DNA of 64,000 bases from Candidatus Eiseniibacteriota bacterium. Its GTDB lineage: Bacteria; Eisenbacteria; RBG-16-71-46. Below are positions 4,251-34,637 of the stretch, piece after piece. The notes beneath the pieces were generated by a model. That model saw nothing but the letters and a program-made list of their open reading frames with translations, searched no databases and had not been told where the DNA came from. Both the position numbers and the translations under genes were made by a program. Location of the stretch: assembly GCA_044223005.1 (NCBI GenBank), contig JBGAML010000005.1:224523-288522 (forward strand), given 5' to 3'. Within the stretch, counting starts at the first letter, position 1. Every line of letters starts with the position of its first letter.

Positions 4251-5594
4251 ATGCGGACCGTTCGCTCTTTGTTCTCGCTCACGCCCCAGGTCCTGGTTTC
4301 GGAGACGCGCTCGTTGCTGGCGGCGCGCGCCGTCAATCTCGCGGAGTTGCTCGAACACCTCGCCGAGATCGACGCGCGGAAGCTCTACGTCGAGGCGGCG
4401 TACGGCTCGACGACGGCGTTCCTCGTCGGCGAACTGGGGATGGATCCGGATTCGGCGAACAAGAAGATCCAGGCGGCGCGTGCCGTTCGCCGAGTTCCGG
4501 CACTCCTGCCGGCGATTGCGGACGGGCGGCTGCACCTGAGCGCGGCGCTCATGCTGCTACCGTCGATCGATGTCGAGAATGCCGAAGAGCTGATCGCTGC
4601 CGCCTCCAATCGCTCGTGTGGTGCGATCCGAGTGATGCTCGCCGAGCGGGTACGGACGCGCGAGCCACAGGCGGGCGCAGACCTGCTTTCGCAAGTCGTT
4701 GCGAATACTGAAAGCGAACCGGATTCAAATCCGGTCATTTCCAGAAACGGTCAAGTGGCCGCGACGGTCCAGCAGACCGCTGCCCAGCCCGCGCCAGTCG
4801 CTCCGGCCCGCCGCACGATCACGTTCACCGTTCCCGCCGAGCTGGCTGAAGCCTACCGTGCCGCCCTCGCGCTCGCGCCCTACGACGTCGCGCGTGACGC
4901 CGTTCGCGCGTTCGAGCAGATGGTGGCGGCGTGGCGCGAGAAGCTCGAGAAGCGGAAGTTCGGGAGCGAGACGCCCCGTGCCGCCAGCAAGGCGTCGACG
5001 GACTCCCGCTGCATCCCGAAACACGTGCGCCGCGAGGTCTGGCGGCGCGACGGCGGCCAGTGCACGTACGTGAGCGACACCGGCCGCCGCTGCGAATGCC
5101 GCAAGCAGCTGCAGTTCGATCACATCATCTCGCGCGCGCTCGGTGGCGAGTCGACGCCCCCGAACCTGCGGCTCCGCTGTCACGCGCACAATCAGCTCGA
5201 GGCCGAGCGCGCGTTCGGCAAGCGCTTCATGGAGGGCAAGCGCGAGGCCGCCCGCGCCGAGCGCGAACGGGAGAGAGCCGCTCGCGAGGCCCGCCGCGCG
5301 GCCCGCGAGCTCGAGCGCGCCGATCGGGAGCGAGCTGAGAGCCAAGCTCCCGCCGTGCGACGCGCCGAACGCCAACGCGTCGCCGAGTCCGAGGCAGCGA
5401 GCAGGGAAGCCGCCAAGGAGCTGATTCCCTGGCTGCGCGGGCTCGGCCTGCGGCAGCACGAGGCCCGGGACGTCGCGCTTCGGACGCCCATCCTCCCGAA
5501 TGCACCGCTCGAAGCCCGCGTCAAAGCCGCGCTGCGCCTTCTCGGCCCGCGGGGCATGCGCACGACTTCATGCGCCGCTCCGAACCCCGCGTGA
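4251..5594 (+). CDS. DUF222 + HNH endonuclease family protein (REP13E12-like)
   Basis: N-terminal DUF222-like region (LAELLEHLAEIDARKLYVEAAYGSTTAFLV...), C-terminal HNH motif (CTYV...C...FDHIISRALGG...NLRLRCHAHN) followed by Arg/Glu-rich coiled-coil tail; 290-nt non-coding leader upstream. Confidence 0.75.
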   Translation: MRTVRSLFSLTPQVLVSETRSLLAARAVNLAELLEHLAEIDARKLYVEAAYGSTTAFLVGELGMDPDSANKKIQAARAVRRVPALLPAIADGRLHLSAALMLLPSIDVENAEELIAAASNRSCGAIRVMLAERVRTREPQAGADLLSQVVANTESEPDSNPVISRNGQVAATVQQTAAQPAPVAPARRTITFTVPAELAEAYRAALALAPYDVARDAVRAFEQMVAAWREKLEKRKFGSETPRAASKASTDSRCIPKHVRREVWRRDGGQCTYVSDTGRRCECRKQLQFDHIISRALGGESTPPNLRLRCHAHNQLEAERAFGKRFMEGKREAARAERERERAAREARRAARELERADRERAESQAPAVRRAERQRVAESEAASREAAKELIPWLRGLGLRQHEARDVALRTPILPNAPLEARVKAALRLLGPRGMRTTSCAAPNPA

Positions 5595-5670
5595 CCACGA
5601 GCGCGGCCCATGCGAAAGGCGCGACGGCCTCTTCGGCCGTCGCGCCTGCGCTGATCGCGATCCGAAGAAC

Positions 5671-6533: not shown

Positions 6534-6610
6534 GCGCCCGTAGCTCAATTGGATAGAGCGTTAGCCTCCGGAGCTAAAGGTTACAGGTTCGATTCCTGTC
6601 GGGCGCACCA
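6534..6610 (+). tRNA. tRNA-Arg (anticodon CCG)
   Basis: Cloverleaf: acceptor GCGCCCG/CGGGCGC, D-arm AGCTCAATTGGATAGAGC, anticodon stem TTAGC/GCTAA with loop CTCCGGA (CCG), T-arm GGTTCGATTCC, encoded CCA. Confidence 0.85.
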
Positions 6611-19413: not shown

Positions 19414-19905
19414 GTGCGCCGCCTCGTTGCGCTCACCGCCGCGGCAACGATCTGCCTGGCCTCGAGCAGCTGCCTGCCCGGGGAGCCCCGTGGCCGAGTC
19501 CACAATGGCCTCTCCATGAGCCAGGGCCCCGTCGGAACGTGGATCGGCGCTTCGGACAGCCTCCAGGTCGTCGTGACCGCCGCACCCGACAGCACCGTCG
19601 CCGTGCGCGGCTGGCTCCTGGGGTACGTGCGCTGCCGCAACGGGGTGCTTCAGTCGATGCCGGTGACGTTCTCCGACCAGGTCCGGTTGCAACCGCTGAT
19701 CGTTCCGTCGGCCGGCGACTACACGGTGAGGGACACTCCAGACTCGCTGCACGTCGAGACGAAGTGGATTCTCGTCGGGTCAGACGAACGGACGTTCGGG
19801 CGCTTCACCGTGGTGATGCACGTGAGCGATCACGCCAGCGGCGCCTGCAACGACGACACGACGACGATCTCCGGCAGCGTGCAGCGCCTCACGCGAATCA
19901 AGTAG
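19414..19905 (+). CDS. Hypothetical lipoprotein
   Basis: Signal peptide plus lipobox (LASSSC); no recognised domain. Confidence 0.45.
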   Translation: MRRLVALTAAATICLASSSCLPGEPRGRVHNGLSMSQGPVGTWIGASDSLQVVVTAAPDSTVAVRGWLLGYVRCRNGVLQSMPVTFSDQVRLQPLIVPSAGDYTVRDTPDSLHVETKWILVGSDERTFGRFTVVMHVSDHASGACNDDTTTISGSVQRLTRIK

Positions 19906-20009
19906 CGCAGGCCGCGAAGACCAGCGCCGCGACGCCCGAGCCGAGGCGACGCGATGTGCGAGGTGGCAGGGGCAACGTCCCGGACCGCAGGGCATCCCAA
20001 ACCCCGAGG

Positions 20010-20053
20010 ATATTATGTGAGCCTCCGGCCTACGGCCGGAGGTTTACATAATA
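20010..20053. repeat. AT-rich 44-nt near-perfect palindrome / long hairpin (probable bidirectional terminator)
   Basis: ATATTATGTGAGCCTCCGGC-CTACG-GCCGGAGGTTTACATAATAT; about 20-bp stem with GC core and AT-rich arms, between two + strand genes in a >70% GC genome. Confidence 0.5.
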
Positions 20054-20303
20054 TCTATTATGCGACTTCATTGAAACTGCCACCACCGCCGCATCCCGCC
20101 TTGCCGCGCCGTGCTTTCGCCTCCCTCGGCCGCGGCCCCTCTCGCCGCGAGCCCCTCTCGAGCCGCCTCGCGATCGCGCCACGCCGCCGAGCGCACGAGG
20201 TGCTAACCTGCGCGCGCACGCCGCCGGTGATCCATCCCGCCGAATCCCCCGGACGCGCGAATCGCTCCCGACCTCGTCCCCGAGCTCTCCGAGGAGATTC
20301 GCC

Positions 20304-21236
20304 ATGATCCGCCGTATCGCCGTCATCGCCGCGCTGGGCAGCTCGCTCGCGCTCGCCACTGCCGCCCGGGCCGCCGAGCCGTACCTCGGCGCCTGGGACG
20401 TCACCCTGAGCCGCCCGGCCGTAGACACGACCTGGCCGTGCTGGTTCCAGCTCGATCGCCTGCCGGGCGTCGGCCTCGTCATGACCTTCCAGGGCATGGC
20501 CAACGCGCCCGTGGCCGTGCGTGGCGTCCAGGCGCTGGACGACGGGCTGCGCTTCGAGGTCCCGAACTTCGGCACGTTCGTCGGCAAGCGCTCCGGCGAC
20601 GGTTACGCCGGCACCATGGCACCGAGCATGGTCGACACGTCGGAGCACCTCGTCGTCGACTGGCGCGCCGTGCGTGCGCCGGGTCTCGACGCGCCCACAA
20701 AGGTCGCCTGGGGCGAACCGATCGCGCTCTTCGACGGCAAGTCGCTCGCGGGCTGGATCGGGCGCCGCGGCGGCAGCGGTGGCTGGGCAGCCAGCGGTGG
20801 CCTGCTGGTCAACGGCGATCTCGCCGGCGACCTCATGACGACGCAGCGCTTCTCGAACTTCAAGCTCCACCTGCAGTACCGGCTGCAACCCGGCGAGGAC
20901 AGCGGACTTCACCTGCGTGGCCGTTATGAGATCCAACTCACCGATCGCCCGGATCCGGCCGGTCCGCTGGGCGCCACGGGAGCCGTCTACGGGTTCTTCC
21001 CGCCCGCCCGCGATGCCGCGAAGCCCGCCGGCCAGTGGAACACGCTCGACGTCGAACTGGTCGGCCGCACGCTCACGGCGCGACTCAACGACGTGCTCAT
21101 CCAGGACCACGTCGTCGTGCCGGGCATCACCGGCGACGCGCTGGATGCGAACGAGTCCGAACCCGGGCCGATCGTCCTGCAGGGCTACCTCGGCCGCATC
21201 GACTTCCGGGACATCGTCCTCACGCCGGCCCGCTGA
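20304..21236 (+). CDS. Secreted DUF1080 (3-keto-disaccharide hydrolase / LamG-like) protein
   Basis: Signal peptide; C-terminal ...PGPIVLQGYLGRIDFRDIVLTP typical ending of DUF1080 family. Confidence 0.65.
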   Translation: MIRRIAVIAALGSSLALATAARAAEPYLGAWDVTLSRPAVDTTWPCWFQLDRLPGVGLVMTFQGMANAPVAVRGVQALDDGLRFEVPNFGTFVGKRSGDGYAGTMAPSMVDTSEHLVVDWRAVRAPGLDAPTKVAWGEPIALFDGKSLAGWIGRRGGSGGWAASGGLLVNGDLAGDLMTTQRFSNFKLHLQYRLQPGEDSGLHLRGRYEIQLTDRPDPAGPLGATGAVYGFFPPARDAAKPAGQWNTLDVELVGRTLTARLNDVLIQDHVVVPGITGDALDANESEPGPIVLQGYLGRIDFRDIVLTPAR

Positions 21237-21250
21237 TCCGGGCTCGCACA

Positions 21251-21280
21251 GGCGATACTGCACACTTGTGCAGTATCGCC
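21251..21280. promoter_or_regulatory. Perfect 14-2-14 inverted repeat with TACTG-N10-CAGTA core (SOS/LexA-box-like operator) 22 nt upstream of radical SAM gene
   Basis: GGCGATACTGCACA-CT-TGTGCAGTATCGCC; the core matches the CTG-N10-CAG SOS-box architecture. Confidence 0.4.
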
Positions 21281-21302
21281 CGCTTGCGGTACAAGGGCAC
21301 TC

Positions 21303-22229
21303 ATGCGCCCCGAGTACCGCGAAGAACCCTGCCGCTCGGCCCTCAATCCCGTCCGCGGGATGCCGTTCGACTGGTCGCTCAACCCGTACATGGGCTGCGC
21401 CCACCGCTGCACGTTCTGCTACGTGCGCGCGTTCGAGCGCCGCGCCGACCGTCCGTGGGACGACCGCTACGGGCGCTCGATCCGCGTGAAGACGAACATC
21501 GCCGAGGTGCTGCGCCGCGAGCTCGCGCGCCGCACGTGGACGCGCGCCGAGGTGCAGGTCGGCGCCGCCACCGATCCCTACCAGCCGATCGAGGCGCGCT
21601 ACCGGCTGACGCGCGCGTGCCTCGAGATGCTCGCCGAGGCGCGCAATCCCTTCGGCATCATCACGCGCGGACCGCTGGTCGTGCGTGACCTCGACGTGCT
21701 CGCCGCGGCGTCCGCGCGCACGGACGTGCGCGTGTACCTGTCCGTGCCGACGCTGGACGAGCGGCTCTGGCGCGCGACCGAGCCCGGCACCGCGCCGCCG
21801 CGCGCGCGCCTGCGTGCCGTCGCGCGCCTCGCCGAAGCGGGCATCCGCGTCTCGGTGCTGGTCGCGCCGTTGATCCCGGGGCTCAGCGATTCCGATGCGT
21901 CGCTCGCGCAGGTCGTGCGCGAGGCGCGTGCCGCCGGCGCGGAGCGGCTCTCGGCGATCGTGCTCCACATGCAGCCCGGGACGCGCGAGCATTTCATGCA
22001 GACGTTGGGCGAAGAATGGCCCGAGGAACGCACGCGGCTCGAGGCGCTCTATGGCGCGCGCGGCTACCTGCCGGGCCGCACGCAGCAGCAGGTGACCGAT
22101 CGCTTCGCGGCGATCCGCGCCCGCGTGCCACGCCGCGAGGGCCTCCCTCCCGCGATCCGGCCGGCTCCCCTCCCGGCGGCCGATCCCGAACCGCCCGCGT
22201 TCGCGCAGCAGCTCGGGCTGGCGCTCTGA
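21303..22229 (+). CDS. Radical SAM protein, SplB/Rv2578c-like DNA repair photolyase family
   Basis: CxxxCxxC radical SAM motif (CAHRCTFCYV), about 308 aa, family similar to spore photoproduct lyase-like proteins. Confidence 0.75.
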   Translation: MRPEYREEPCRSALNPVRGMPFDWSLNPYMGCAHRCTFCYVRAFERRADRPWDDRYGRSIRVKTNIAEVLRRELARRTWTRAEVQVGAATDPYQPIEARYRLTRACLEMLAEARNPFGIITRGPLVVRDLDVLAAASARTDVRVYLSVPTLDERLWRATEPGTAPPRARLRAVARLAEAGIRVSVLVAPLIPGLSDSDASLAQVVREARAAGAERLSAIVLHMQPGTREHFMQTLGEEWPEERTRLEALYGARGYLPGRTQQQVTDRFAAIRARVPRREGLPPAIRPAPLPAADPEPPAFAQQLGLAL

Positions 22230-22253: not shown

Positions 22254-23621
22254 ATGCGCTCCGTCGATCCCGCCACGCTCGAAATCGTCACCGACGTCGA
22301 GGACCATTCGTCCGCGCAGGCGGCAGCGCTTCTCGCCGCGGCGGCAGCCGCGTTTCCGGCCTGGCGCGACGCCGGCATCCCGGCGCGCGCCGCCGTGCTC
22401 CGACGCGCGGGCGCGCTGCTCCGCGAGCGGCGTGACGCGCTCGCCACGCTCGCCGTGCGCGAGATGGGCAAGCCGATCGCGCAGGCCGAGGCCGAGGTCG
22501 AGAAGTGCGCGGCCGCGTGCGAGTGGTTCGCCGAACACGCCGCGGCCGCGCTCGCGCCCGAGACGATCGCGAGTGACGCCACGCGCAGCGGCGTGCGCAA
22601 CCTGCCGTTCGGCGTGGTGCTCGCGGTGATGCCGTGGAACTTCCCGTTCTGGCAGGTCGTCCGCGCCGCCACACCCGCGCTCGCGGCCGGCAACACGGTC
22701 GCGCTCAAGCACGCGTCCAACGTGCCCGGCGTCGCGCTCGCGATCGAAGCGCTGTTCCGCGACGCCGGCGCGCCTCCCGGCGTGTTCACCACGCTGCTCG
22801 TCGGCGCGCGCGACGTGCCGGCGCTGATCGCGCACCCGGCGATCGCGGCGGTGACGCTGACCGGCAGCGAAGCCGCGGGCCGCGAGGTGGCCGCGTGCGC
22901 GGGCCGCGCGCTCAAGCCCTGCGTGCTGGAGCTCGGCGGCTCGGATCCGTTCGTCGTGCTCGCCGACGCCGATCTCGATGCGGTCGTGCCACTCGCCGTC
23001 ACGGCGCGCGTGCAGAACAACGGCCAGAGCTGCATCGCGGCCAAGCGCTTCATCGTGGTCGAGCCGCTCGCCGACGCGTTCGCCGAACGCTTCGCGCGCG
23101 CCATGGACGCGCTCGTCGTGGGCGACCCATTGGACCGCGCGACGCAGGTGGGCCCGCTCGCGAAGCCGGAGTTCGTCGACGACCTCGAGGACCAGGTGCG
23201 CCGCAGCATCGCCGCCGGTGCACGCCTGCTCGTCGGCGGCCGCCGGCCCCCGGGGCTCCGCGGTGCGTTCTACGCGCCGACCGTGCTCGCGGAGGTGCGC
23301 CCGGGCTGCCCGGCGTTCGACGAGGAGACGTTCGGCCCCGTGGCGCCGGTGATCCGTGCGCGCGATGACGCCGAGGCGCTCACGCTCGCCAACCATTCGC
23401 GCTTCGGGCTCGGCGCCAGCGTGTGGACGCGCGATGCGGCGCGCGGCGAAGCGTTCGCCGCGCGGATCGAAGCCGGAGCGGTGTTCGTCAACGGCATCGT
23501 GAAGTCGGATCCGCGGCTGCCGTTCGGCGGCATCAAGGCGTCGGGCTGGGGCCGCGAGCTGGGCGTCGCCGGCCTGCGCGCGTTCACGAACCTGCAGACC
23601 CACTGGGCGCGCGAAGCCTGA
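22254..23621 (+). CDS. NAD(P)-dependent succinate-semialdehyde / aldehyde dehydrogenase
   Basis: ALDH motifs: VLELGGSDP, NNGQSCIAAKR catalytic Cys, EETFGPV. Confidence 0.85.
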   Translation: MRSVDPATLEIVTDVEDHSSAQAAALLAAAAAAFPAWRDAGIPARAAVLRRAGALLRERRDALATLAVREMGKPIAQAEAEVEKCAAACEWFAEHAAAALAPETIASDATRSGVRNLPFGVVLAVMPWNFPFWQVVRAATPALAAGNTVALKHASNVPGVALAIEALFRDAGAPPGVFTTLLVGARDVPALIAHPAIAAVTLTGSEAAGREVAACAGRALKPCVLELGGSDPFVVLADADLDAVVPLAVTARVQNNGQSCIAAKRFIVVEPLADAFAERFARAMDALVVGDPLDRATQVGPLAKPEFVDDLEDQVRRSIAAGARLLVGGRRPPGLRGAFYAPTVLAEVRPGCPAFDEETFGPVAPVIRARDDAEALTLANHSRFGLGASVWTRDAARGEAFAARIEAGAVFVNGIVKSDPRLPFGGIKASGWGRELGVAGLRAFTNLQTHWAREA

Positions 23622-31724: not shown

Positions 31725-32687
31725 TCAGGCCCGCGGGTGGAACTGGCGATGCACCTCGCGCAGGTAGCTGCGGTCGAGATGCGTGTAGATGGCGGTGGTG
31801 GTGACCGAGGCGTGGCCCAGCAGCTCCTGCACGACGCGCAGGTCGGCGCCGCCCTCGAGCAGGTGGGTCGCGAACGAGTGCCGCAGGGCATGCGGATGCA
31901 CACGCGCCGTGAGCCCGGCCTTGCGGGCCAGCGCGCGCAGGATCTTCCACCAGCCCATGCGCGAGAGCGGTCCCCCGCGCGCGTTGCAGAAGACGCGGTC
32001 GTGGCGCGCGCGGGACGCGAGCTGCGGCCGCCCGCGGTCGAGCCACTCGCGCAGCGCGCGCTCCGCCTGGCGGCCGAACGGGACGAGCCGCTGCTTGTCG
32101 CCCTTGCCGACCACGGTGAGCACTCGGCCCGAGAAACTGACGGCGTCGCGCTCGAGCCCGATCAGCTCGCTGACGCGCAGGCCGCACGCGTAGGCGACCT
32201 CGAGCATCGCGCGATCGCGCAGCGCGAGCGCGCCCTCGCCCTCCGGCTGCGCGAGCAGCGCCTCGACGTCGGCGAGCGAGAGCGCGTGCGGCAGCTTGCG
32301 GTCGCGCCGCGGCGCCGGGATGCGCGCGAACGGGTCGGCGCCCGGCGTCGCCGCGCGCGCGAGGTAGCCGTGCAGGCCACGCAGCGACGAGCGCCGGCGC
32401 GACACGGTCGAGCCCGCCAGCCCGCGGCGCGCGAGCTGCGCGAAGTACGCGTCCACGAACGTCGGCGTCGCCTCGCGCCAGTCGGCCAGGCCGTGCTTCA
32501 CCGCGAACGCGAGGTAGTCGTCGGCGTCGCGCCGGTAGGCGTCGAGCGTGTGCGCGCTCAGGCGCCGGCCGGTACGCAGCTCGTCGAGCCACGCCTCCGC
32601 CGGCAGGCGCAGGCCCGCCGGCACCGGCGTCTCCGCCGGGGCGGTCGCCACCGCGGTGGCGCGCGGCCGGGTGCGCGTCGCGCTCAC
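31725..32687 (-). CDS. Tyrosine recombinase XerC/XerD family
   Basis: R...HALRHSFATHLL...LLGH...TTAIYTHL catalytic motifs; 4-nt overlap with uvrC. Confidence 0.85.
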   Translation of the reverse strand: MSATRTRPRATAVATAPAETPVPAGLRLPAEAWLDELRTGRRLSAHTLDAYRRDADDYLAFAVKHGLADWREATPTFVDAYFAQLARRGLAGSTVSRRRSSLRGLHGYLARAATPGADPFARIPAPRRDRKLPHALSLADVEALLAQPEGEGALALRDRAMLEVAYACGLRVSELIGLERDAVSFSGRVLTVVGKGDKQRLVPFGRQAERALREWLDRGRPQLASRARHDRVFCNARGGPLSRMGWWKILRALARKAGLTARVHPHALRHSFATHLLEGGADLRVVQELLGHASVTTTAIYTHLDRSYLREVHRQFHPRA

Positions 32688-34525
32688 GCGGCTCCCTCCC
32701 GCTCCGCGAGGTGCGCGAGCACGCGCTCGGCGAGCGCCTTCGGCACGCGCGCGCGCTCGGCGATCTCCTCGGCCGAGGCGCCGCGCAGGGCCGCGACCGA
32801 GCCGAACGCCTTGAGCAGCGCCGCGCGCCGCGTCGGTCCCACGCCGGGCACCGTGTCGAGCGCGCTGCCGATGCGCGCTCGGGAGCGCAGCGCGCGGTGG
32901 TACTCGAGCCCGAACCGGTGCGCCTCGTCGCGCAGCCGCTGCAGCGCGCGCAGGGCAGGCGAACGGCGCGCGAGGCGCAGGTCCGGCAGCCCCTCGCGCA
33001 CGACGAGTTCCTCGCGCTTGGCGAGACCGATCATCGCGACCGCGCGCGTGGCGACACGCGACATCGCGTCGCGCGCGGCGCCCAGCTGGCCGGCGCCGCC
33101 GTCGATCACCACGAGGTCCGGCCGCGGCAGCTCACCCGACTCGACGCGCGTCCAGTAGCGCTCCACCGCTTCGCCGATCATCGCGAAGTCGTCCGGGCCC
33201 GGGCGGCGGATGCGCATGCGCCGGTAGAGCGACTTGCGCGCGCGCCCGTCCTCGGAGGCGACGACCGCGGCGACCGCCTGGTCGGGACCGAAGTTGGAGA
33301 TGTCGAAGCACACCATGCGGTGCGGCGGCGCGTCGAGCCCGAGTTCCTTCTGCAGCCCGAGCACCGCGGCCGAGAAGCGCGCCCGCCGGCCGCTCGCGCG
33401 CGCGGCGAGGTGTTCGAGCGCCGCGGCGGCGTTCTTCTCCGCGACCTCGACCAGCCGCCGCGAACGGCCGCGCACCGGCGCGAGCAGTTCGACCGCGTGG
33501 CCCGCGCGGCGCGAGAGCGCCTCGGCGAGCGCGGGCGCGTTGGCCGGCGCCTCGCTCACCAGCACGCGGCGCGGCAGGTCGGTGCGCGCCAGCGCGTGCT
33601 GCGTCACCCACAGCTCGACGATGGCGCCGTCGTCCGTGCCCGCGGCGCGCGCGAGGATGCGCGACTCCTTGCCGATCACGCGGCCGCCGCGCACGAGCAG
33701 CGTCGCGAGCGCCGCGCGCTCACCGTGCCGCGCGACGCCGAGCACGTCGGTGTCGCGCGGATCGTTGGTCACCATCTTCTGCGGCACCTGCGCGCGCTCG
33801 AGCAGCCGGATCTGGTCGCGGCGCTGGGCGGCGATCTCGTAGCGGCGCCCGGCCGCGGCCTCGTCCATCTCGCGCCGCAGCTGCGCCAGCAGTTCGTCGT
33901 TGCGCCCGGCGAGCAGGAGCATCAGGCCGTCGGCCATCGCCCGGTACGCCTTCGGCTCGACGCGCGCGCGGCTGTAGCAGGGTCCCGCGCAGCGCTTGAT
34001 GTGGAAGTAGAGACAGGGACGGTCCTGCCGGCGGTAGTCGTCGAAGTTGCGGCACGTGCGCAGCGGGAAGACGCGCCGCAGGTCGCGCAGGGTGCGCCGC
34101 AGGTTCTTCACGTCCGTGAACGGACCCAGGTAGCGTGCGCCGTCGTCGCGCACGCGCCGCGTCACCGACAGCCGCGGAAACTCGTCCTGCATCGAGAGCT
34201 TCACGAACGGGAAGCTTTTGTCGTCCTTGAGCAGGACGTTGTAGTTCGGACGATGCTGCCGGATCAGCGTCGATTCGAGGAGCAGGGCCTCCGCCTCGGT
34301 GTCCGTGAGGATCACGTCCACGTCCGCGGCCCGTTCCATCATCTCGTCCATACGCGGGCGCTGCGGGTCGTGCCCGAGGTAGCTGCGCACCCGGGACGCC
34401 AGGCTCAGGGCCTTGCCGACATACAGCACTTCGCCCCGGGCGTCCTTGAACAGGTAAACCCCCGGCGAGGCCGGCAGATCGGCGATTTTTTCGCTCAGCG
34501 CGCTCACGGAGCCCTCCGGAAGCAC
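32684..34525 (-). CDS. uvrC: Excinuclease ABC subunit C
   Basis: GIY-YIG N-terminus (PGVYLFKD...LYVGKA), UvrBC, RNase H-like and C-terminal HhH domains, 613 aa. Confidence 0.93.
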   Translation of the reverse strand: MLPEGSVSALSEKIADLPASPGVYLFKDARGEVLYVGKALSLASRVRSYLGHDPQRPRMDEMMERAADVDVILTDTEAEALLLESTLIRQHRPNYNVLLKDDKSFPFVKLSMQDEFPRLSVTRRVRDDGARYLGPFTDVKNLRRTLRDLRRVFPLRTCRNFDDYRRQDRPCLYFHIKRCAGPCYSRARVEPKAYRAMADGLMLLLAGRNDELLAQLRREMDEAAAGRRYEIAAQRRDQIRLLERAQVPQKMVTNDPRDTDVLGVARHGERAALATLLVRGGRVIGKESRILARAAGTDDGAIVELWVTQHALARTDLPRRVLVSEAPANAPALAEALSRRAGHAVELLAPVRGRSRRLVEVAEKNAAAALEHLAARASGRRARFSAAVLGLQKELGLDAPPHRMVCFDISNFGPDQAVAAVVASEDGRARKSLYRRMRIRRPGPDDFAMIGEAVERYWTRVESGELPRPDLVVIDGGAGQLGAARDAMSRVATRAVAMIGLAKREELVVREGLPDLRLARRSPALRALQRLRDEAHRFGLEYHRALRSRARIGSALDTVPGVGPTRRAALLKAFGSVAALRGASAEEIAERARVPKALAERVLAHLAEREGAA

Positions 34526-34637
34526 GAGTGGGGGTACTCGAGGGGACTACACTACATGGGGAACGCCGGTCCGAACAATGCCCGTTTGCCGGCCGCGGGG
34601 CCCAGCCGACCACGCCGCACGGACCGCGCCCACCGCG

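Follow-up and report, generated by a model that had tools for sequence, protein, structure and literature searches.

The DNA analysed here (the window) is a stretch of 64,000 nt with a GC content of 72%, whose genes run in the order sigma54 regulator–LptE–hypothetical–LeuS–…–radical-SAM–aldehyde dehydrogenase–GH57–TPR. The same order is found in MAGs of Candidatus Eisenbacteria, and this synteny places the window in that group. Our interest centres on a gene for a radical-SAM protein of 308 aa (21303–22229, + strand; PF04055, 1.6e-18), the closest database relative of which is 90% identical (locus L001). Twenty-four nucleotides 3' of it lies a gene for an aldehyde (succinate-semialdehyde-like) dehydrogenase (22254–23621, + strand; PF00171, 6e-140), which may be co-transcribed with it; the dehydrogenase gene follows the radical-SAM gene in the related loci L002, L003 and L211, and does not in L212. 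On the other side, between leuS and the radical-SAM gene, is a PF06439 (3-keto-disaccharide hydrolase/DUF1080) gene (20304–21236, + strand). The window, L001 and L212 have this gene; L002, L003 and L211 lack it and have instead 240–750 nt of GC-rich DNA that appears to be non-coding. It represents a variable insertion or deletion within an otherwise syntenic region.

The translated radical-SAM ORF contains the cluster motif CxxxCxxC in the form CAHRCTFC, and its best NCBIfam matches are NF038135 (Rv2578c family; 262.4 bits against a cut-off of 430) and NF033668 (PA0069 family; 210.9 bits against a cut-off of 360). As judged by these profile scores, the protein is a relative of the Rv2578c/PA0069 (COG1533 'SplB-like') group and not a certified equivalog of either family. 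A preliminary description of the locus had labelled the gene SplB/Rv2578c-like; the label is apt insofar as it denotes a radical-SAM protein of the Rv2578c/PA0069 type, and misleading if it is taken to mean a true spore photoproduct lyase (SplB, TIGR04070), an identity that we reject at 28.5 bits against a cut-off of 400.

The TGA of the PF06439/DUF1080 gene ends 14 nt 5' of the sequence GGCGATACTGCACA-CT-TGTGCAGTATCGCC (21251–21280), and the ATG of the radical-SAM gene begins 22 nt 3' of it. Direct reading of the sequence confirms what had been claimed for this site, namely a perfect 14-2-14 inverted repeat 22 nt ahead of a start codon; as RNA, it would form a 13-bp hairpin. It ranks first in length among the perfect inverted repeats of the 64-kb window. 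The second longest, a perfect 13-nt repeat (GGCGCGACGGCC..GGCCGTCGCGCC, 5617–5647), is situated between two convergent genes and resembles a terminator hairpin. When the window was simulated with a first-order Markov model, 5% of the simulations reached arms of at least 14 nt, so the length of the palindrome is by itself marginal evidence and does not prove a function. The site is also singular: TACTG-N10-CAGTA has one match with zero mismatches in the window (matches with two mismatches resemble noise), and the core TGCACACTTGTGCA finds no second match there even with up to three mismatches allowed. Rfam, run at gathering thresholds over the whole window, returned only a tRNA (6534–6607), and no known RNA family matched the hairpin.

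Conservation upstream of radical-SAM orthologues

Evidence that part of the palindrome is under constraint was derived from the upstream regions of orthologous genes, which we gathered by protein homology only (L001–L003, L211 and L212, plus a metagenome scan). The core TGCACnCTTGTGCA is kept in 11 orthologous loci besides the window, and at all 12 the sequence TGC[A/T]CnCTTGTGCA begins 42–46 nt before the start codon. In the alignment of these 12 upstream regions, eleven columns (11–13, 15 and 18–24) are invariant and the flanks diverge; the near-invariant core in the window is TGCACACTTGTGCA (TGCAC-N4-GTGCA, 21259–21272). Dyad symmetry, fixed spacing and sequence conservation thereby coincide at 12 loci. 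It is this retention of the core at a constant distance from the start codon, across 11 orthologous loci, that marks the site as more than chance. A GC-rich palindrome of no function would be expected now and then, given that perfect arms of at least 14 nt turn up in 5% of simulated windows; nevertheless, such an accident would not explain the conservation at a fixed position, nor the identity of the site to the lexA promoter boxes described below, nor that the site is relatively AT-rich within a 72% GC genome. We regard a chance origin as exceedingly improbable, contradicted already by the conservation.

The constraint does not extend to the ends of the palindrome. The left outer arm (GGCGA, 21251–21255) and the right outer arm with which it pairs (TCGCC, 21276–21280) lengthen the dyad into a long stem, but these outer columns differ in 10 of the 11 orthologues. 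In L001 the outer arms have a different sequence that is again complementary (GGGCCCAGC/GCAGGGCCC, 8 of 9 pairs); with the window and L001 left out, outer-arm pairing is at the random level by our own count. The full 14-nt arms had been put forward as the operator: their inner part is indeed the conserved core, whereas GGCGA and TCGCC fall outside the conserved site.

Could the palindrome serve mainly as an RNA hairpin, that is, as a terminator lacking a U-tract, or as a stabiliser of the 3' end, for the PF06439/DUF1080 gene? The palindrome begins only 14 nt past the DUF1080 stop codon, the RNA fold is strong (−32.7 kcal/mol, z = −4.66, with a 13-bp hairpin), and the outer arms of L001, altered yet still complementary, present a compensatory pattern. 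A GC-rich perfect stem right after a stop codon is also what an intrinsic terminator looks like; unlike one, this stem has no U-tract after it, and its conserved core, of the kind bound by proteins, persists where there is no upstream gene. A Rho-independent terminator is rejected in that the hairpin is followed by the tail CGCTTGCGG, free of any T/U run, and a terminator scan of 19800–21500 called a single terminator-like site (20011–20053) and none at the palindrome. Moreover, the core and its distance from the start codon are the same in L002, L003 and L211, in which no gene lies between leuS and the radical-SAM gene, and L132 and L212 keep the core with an upstream gene present but without the extended stem. 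Since the core is kept with or without an upstream gene, we view it as a sequence-specific site tied to the start of the radical-SAM gene, not as a hairpin belonging to the upstream stop codon. Added to this are the random level of outer-arm pairing noted above, the invariance of the core (which leaves no covariation in support of a stem) and the presence of the same 14-mer within lexA promoters. A role as terminator only is thereby ruled out; the hairpin cannot be the main function of the palindrome, and the reading of the site as primarily an RNA element is in our estimation very improbable. The extended stem does show that the sequence has been shaped by something other than LexA as well. 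The complementary extension of five bases in each outer arm is specific to the window's lineage and makes of the box a 13-bp RNA hairpin just past the upstream gene; that the hairpin has, in this sublineage, an additional 3'-end role for that gene, beside an operator, is plausible, though we consider it less likely than not.

A further dyad occurs downstream of leuS, where four Eisenbacteria genomes share the conserved AT-rich sequence TT(G/T)ACATAATA-N2-TATTATGCGAC (window 20011–20067; L002 ~73–100; L003 ~4424–4448; L211 ~2890–2915). In the window it is preceded by an overlapping hairpin with a 20-bp stem, which is the site that the scan called terminator-like (20011–20053); in L211 it is only ~45 nt 5' of the LexA box. 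The leuS-downstream dyad has the same half-site-N2-half-site layout as that box and another sequence; a second operator, a promoter and the terminator of leuS are all conceivable identities for it.

The conserved positions also suggest how the core may relate to a promoter. Together with the conserved spacer CTT, the sequence TGTGCA of the right half-site creates a −35-like hexamer, TTGTGC, at the radical-SAM genes (21266–21271, + strand, in the window), a candidate suggested by the conservation of the spacer and the constant distance to the start. A TAnnnT-like hexamer follows 16–18 nt 3' of TTGTGC, mostly 6–7 nt before the start codon (10 nt in L200): in the window this putative −10 element is the weak TACAAG (21290–21295, + strand), 7 nt before the ATG, and in the orthologues it reads TAGCCT, TAGTTT, TAGGAT, CATAAT, TATTCC or TATGCG. 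A consensus scan of 19800–21500 called no sigma-70 promoter, and a Shine-Dalgarno sequence is absent in most of the radical-SAM loci examined. We tentatively suggest that the radical-SAM mRNA is leaderless or near-leaderless, and that its −35 element would be covered by LexA.

A different box stands at the equivalent place in other orthologues. In 17 loci of close radical-SAM orthologues from soil metagenomes (L134–L137, L139, L141, L142, L146, L148, L150, L175, L177, L178, L180, L182, L186 and L193), a perfect GAAC-N4-GTTC lies 23–40 nt before the start codon, against a chance expectation that we estimate at ~0.003 per 200-nt region. We take this motif to be the LexA (Cheo) box of Gram-positive bacteria and Actinobacteria. 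Its occurrence at this position suggests that the gene has stayed under LexA from one lineage to the next even as the box itself was exchanged.

The box in lexA promoters and at other genes of related genomes

Our evidence for a regulon comes from relatives of the window's organism, at loci that were in part selected by the motif itself. A scan of a genome collection with ACTGCACANNTGTGCA returned at least 120 loci; among the matches listed, at least four are from Eisenbacteria, at least five from Zixibacteria and at least two from Ignavibacteria, and most of the others are scattered single matches. Several MAGs have in common the architecture cTTGACAac-TGCACAnnTGTGCA-gTAnnnT, a sigma-70-type promoter with the box occupying its 17-nt spacer. 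Among the 120 matches listed, TTGAC is found exactly 8 nt upstream of at least 15 sites, against an estimated ~0.25 expected. Other matches were set aside. Those in Saccharibacteria (L016, L087, L088, L094 and L096) fall inside a conserved ORF of ~189 aa and reflect coding conservation, not an operator; the Planctomycetota match L053, between convergent genes, was rejected as noise; and the matches listed from most other phyla resemble chance 14-mers.

The box is most consistently found at lexA itself. All eight Eisenbacteria-type lexA loci examined, six of them chosen independently of the motif, have TGCACAAATGTGCA between their −35 and −10 elements, and TGCACAnnTGTGCA is perfect in each of the eight, the pattern expected of autoregulation, here in relatives. 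The two motif-selected loci are L004 and L064, the latter on a complete chromosome of Candidatus Eiseniibacteriota; both encode proteins with PF01726 and PF00717. A motif-independent sample was assembled from homologues of the L064 LexA, and comprised the loci of four LexA proteins annotated as Eisenbacteria and one annotated as Latescibacteria: in all five (L214 among them) TGCACAAATGTGCA is perfect and framed by the promoter in the same way, and the four Eisenbacteria loci read cTTGACAnc-TGCACAAATGTGCA-(g/c)TAnnnn upstream of lexA, as do L214, L055, L064 and L004. The lexA promoter of L055 has this box at a site beyond the reach of the search pattern, 3 kb from the site at a DUF6504-like gene of the same genome. 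The lexA loci and the radical-SAM loci come from different assemblies; L055 displays two boxes (lexA and DUF6504) in one genome. The overlap of box and promoter is plain at lexA, where the box occupies the whole 17-nt spacer; at the radical-SAM genes there are weak −35 and −10 candidates together with the constant distance to the ATG. In L126 (1471–1500), L129 (1413–1443) and L055 (6296–6325, − strand), the lexA −10 hexamer is only 7–10 nt before the annotated ATG, and these lexA mRNAs may be leaderless or near-leaderless; in L064, L124 and L214, lexA has a leader of 120–260 nt.

The LexA proteins of the lineage are canonical. In alignment, the Eisenbacteria proteins have an identical recognition-helix stretch, STNGVRYYL, and they combine PF01726 with PF00717 and keep the AG cleavage site, the serine of an SM motif and the lysine of a VKR motif. 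In other words, the relatives encode a self-cleaving LexA of the usual design, with a winged helix-turn-helix, an S24 peptidase domain, an Ala-Gly bond and a Ser/Lys dyad. We did weigh whether the box might be the operator of some other dimeric helix-turn-helix regulator that controls lexA and repair genes alike. The operator assignment is built on sequence, and the FCB group offers a precedent for regulator replacement in the non-canonical, phage-repressor-like SOS regulators of Bacteroidetes (PMC8565304). On the other hand, a canonical LexA with its residues intact is present in the lineage; lexA is the gene that the box precedes most consistently, in 8 of 8 loci, and autoregulation is a hallmark of LexA; and the 16-bp CTG-N10-CAG frame fits the geometry of an E. 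coli-type LexA box. Control by a regulator other than LexA is, we judge, quite improbable.

Bearing in mind that some of these sites were found through the motif itself, we observed the box at further genes related to DNA damage, translesion polymerases and helicases among them, in the related genomes. In four loci, lexA heads an operon with a DUF6504-like gene (83–98 aa) and a Y-family polymerase gene (PF00817): L124 (1501–3788), L125 (1501–3668), L129 (1444–3293) and L214 (1501–3699). DUF6504-like genes (83–84 aa) also occur behind a box promoter of their own (L055, 3052–3302; L102, 750–1004; L032, 3445–3699), and DUF6504 looks like an uncharacterised accessory protein of the SOS response or of translesion synthesis. 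In L068 the box precedes a gene of no assigned family, which is followed by that for a DinB-like polymerase. In Zixibacteria, Ignavibacteria and other MAGs, a promoter with the box in its spacer stands before a small Zn-ribbon ORF (L024, L045, L110 and L123) and, in loci that reach far enough, before a gene for a Hel308-like helicase of roughly 880–900 aa (L018, L045, L063 and L123); the two genes occur together in L045 and L123, in what looks, from gene order and motif, like a conserved SOS-regulated operon. Absence of the motif from SOS genes would have spoken against the operator proposed in the preliminary description; instead, it was found in relatives at lexA (8 of 8) and at genes for DinB-like, DUF6504 and Hel308-like proteins.

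The window was also scanned with a matrix that left its own site out and drew on 13 sites in other genomes, 4 of them from lexA promoters and 9 from radical-SAM orthologues. The matrix has the consensus TACTGCACAATTGTGCAGTA and 22 bits of information. The 20-bp box TACTGCACACTTGTGCAGTA (21256–21275) reaches 36.1 bits, as high as the best of the training sites, and no other position in the 64 kb exceeds 8.7 bits. No credible further site emerged in the window from the TACTG-N10-CAGTA search, the core search or the matrix scan. The window does contain uvrC (32684–34546, − strand), divergent from rpsT, and the matrix scan found no LexA box for it; nucleotide-excision repair in the window would thus apparently lie outside the control of the TGCAC-N4-GTGCA box, which argues for a regulon that is small or unlike the textbook SOS response. 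The window site reads CTGC-ACACTTGT-GCAG; the C that follows CTG, like the G opposite it in the dyad, is near-invariant in the matrix and invariant in the 12 aligned orthologous sites. The site is not an E. coli-type box, CTGT-N8-ACAG with an AT-rich spacer, with which it shares only the CTG-N10-CAG frame and the TA flanks. The TACTG-N10-CAGTA frame first noticed at the locus is accordingly retained in the consensus TACTGCACAATTGTGCAGTA, but the invariant bases are TGCAC...GTGCA and not those of E. coli.

A proposed LexA operator in the Eisenbacteria

The upstream regions of the radical-SAM orthologues contain a conserved dyad, the lexA promoters of relatives contain the same dyad, and the lineage has a canonical LexA. 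Taking together the synteny with Eisenbacteria, the autoregulatory box at lexA, the footprint of conservation at the radical-SAM genes, the genes of the apparent regulon, the GAAC-N4-GTTC box of other orthologues, the literature, the residues of LexA and the matrix score, we are confident, on sequence grounds, in proposing that the central 20 bp, TACTGCACACTTGTGCAGTA, is an SOS box, the LexA operator of a bacterium of the Eisenbacteria lineage. The suggestion that a LexA/SOS operator precedes a repair-type radical-SAM gene thus gains support from conservation and from the lexA promoter boxes of relatives. The operator is very probably a switch of an ordinary type, in a lineage-specific version of the SOS box. 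As to promoter geometry, LexA binding and induction by damage, we infer the following: a LexA dimer on the TGCAC-N4-GTGCA dyad would occupy the promoter of the radical-SAM gene, probably a leaderless one whose −35 element coincides with the right half-site of the dyad; the bound repressor would hold off the radical-SAM gene and possibly the aldehyde dehydrogenase gene behind it; and DNA damage would, through RecA-stimulated self-cleavage of LexA, free the promoter.

We also advance a broader proposal, tentatively, as one that is somewhat less likely than not: Eisenbacteria, Zixibacteria, Ignavibacteria and other lineages known from MAGs would have in common an undescribed LexA motif, TACTGCAC-N4-GTGCAGTA. 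If so, the motif would govern a compact regulon made up of the lexA–DUF6504–Y-family polymerase operon, the SplB-like radical-SAM gene and the Zn-ribbon–Hel308-like helicase operon; transcription of some targets would start at leaderless promoters, with an operator half-site itself as the −35 element; and the sublineage of the window would have lengthened the operator to a perfect palindrome of 30 bp, which would serve the upstream gene as a 3' hairpin as well. We found no description of an SOS regulon or LexA motif for Eisenbacteria and the neighbouring FCB lineages in the literature that we searched. The analysis would provide these lineages with a LexA motif and a first sketch of an SOS regulon, and would assign a regulatory function to an intergenic palindrome of an uncultured candidate phylum.

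Comparison with known LexA boxes and targets

The LexA box of E. coli and of Gamma- and Betaproteobacteria is TACTGTATATATATACAGTA, or CTGT-N8-ACAG. The box described here resembles it in its 20-bp frame, in the TACTG/CAGTA ends, in the CTG-N10-CAG spacing and in a dyad suited to a LexA dimer; as in E. coli, it is found at lexA itself, whose promoter it overlaps, and at genes for translesion polymerases. It differs in that position 4 and its mirror are C/G (CTGC...GCAG) where E. coli has T/A, and in that the inner CAC...GTG is invariant whereas the E. coli spacer is AT-rich. The recognition helices differ too: STNGVRYYL in Eisenbacteria, as against SPNAAEEHL in E. coli.

The LexA of Fibrobacter succinogenes, whose phylum, Fibrobacteres, falls like Eisenbacteria within the FCB group, reportedly recognises the box TGCNC-N4-GTGCA, said to mark a stage on the way to the gammaproteobacterial box. 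The core in the window, TGCAC-N4-GTGCA, is presumably the same dyad with the same spacing, in a comparison that covers the core; our text searches of the literature did not return the Fibrobacter motif. A step of that kind would fit the TACTG/CAGTA flanks seen here. Were the broader proposal correct, TACTGCAC-N4-GTGCAGTA would join the presumed Fibrobacter core to proteobacterial TACTG/CAGTA ends, and would be a living intermediate in the evolution of the LexA box; the motif bears on how that box changed between its Gram-positive and proteobacterial forms.

Genes of the SplB-like family are known targets of LexA. In M. tuberculosis, ChIP-seq places LexA at Rv2578c/Rv2579, where induction depends on RecA (PMC3381160); PA0069 belongs to the 15 SOS genes of P. 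aeruginosa (bioRxiv 10.1101/2022.03.14.484287, citing Cirz 2006); and SplB/COG1533 or 'a radical SAM protein' appears in the LexA regulons of Bacteroidetes, Verrucomicrobia and Balneolaeota (PMC8565304; PMC7739468). The window would add one more phylum in which an SplB-like radical-SAM gene is among the genes most persistently controlled by LexA, and such persistence makes a stronger case for an enzyme that acts on damaged DNA. Like Rv2578c, PA0069 and the splB/COG1533 genes, the gene in the window belongs to this family and stands directly behind the LexA box of its lineage; unlike them, its protein falls below both equivalog cut-offs, and its box is TGCAC-N4-GTGCA, where 17 orthologues have GAAC-N4-GTTC and Balneolaeota have a direct repeat.
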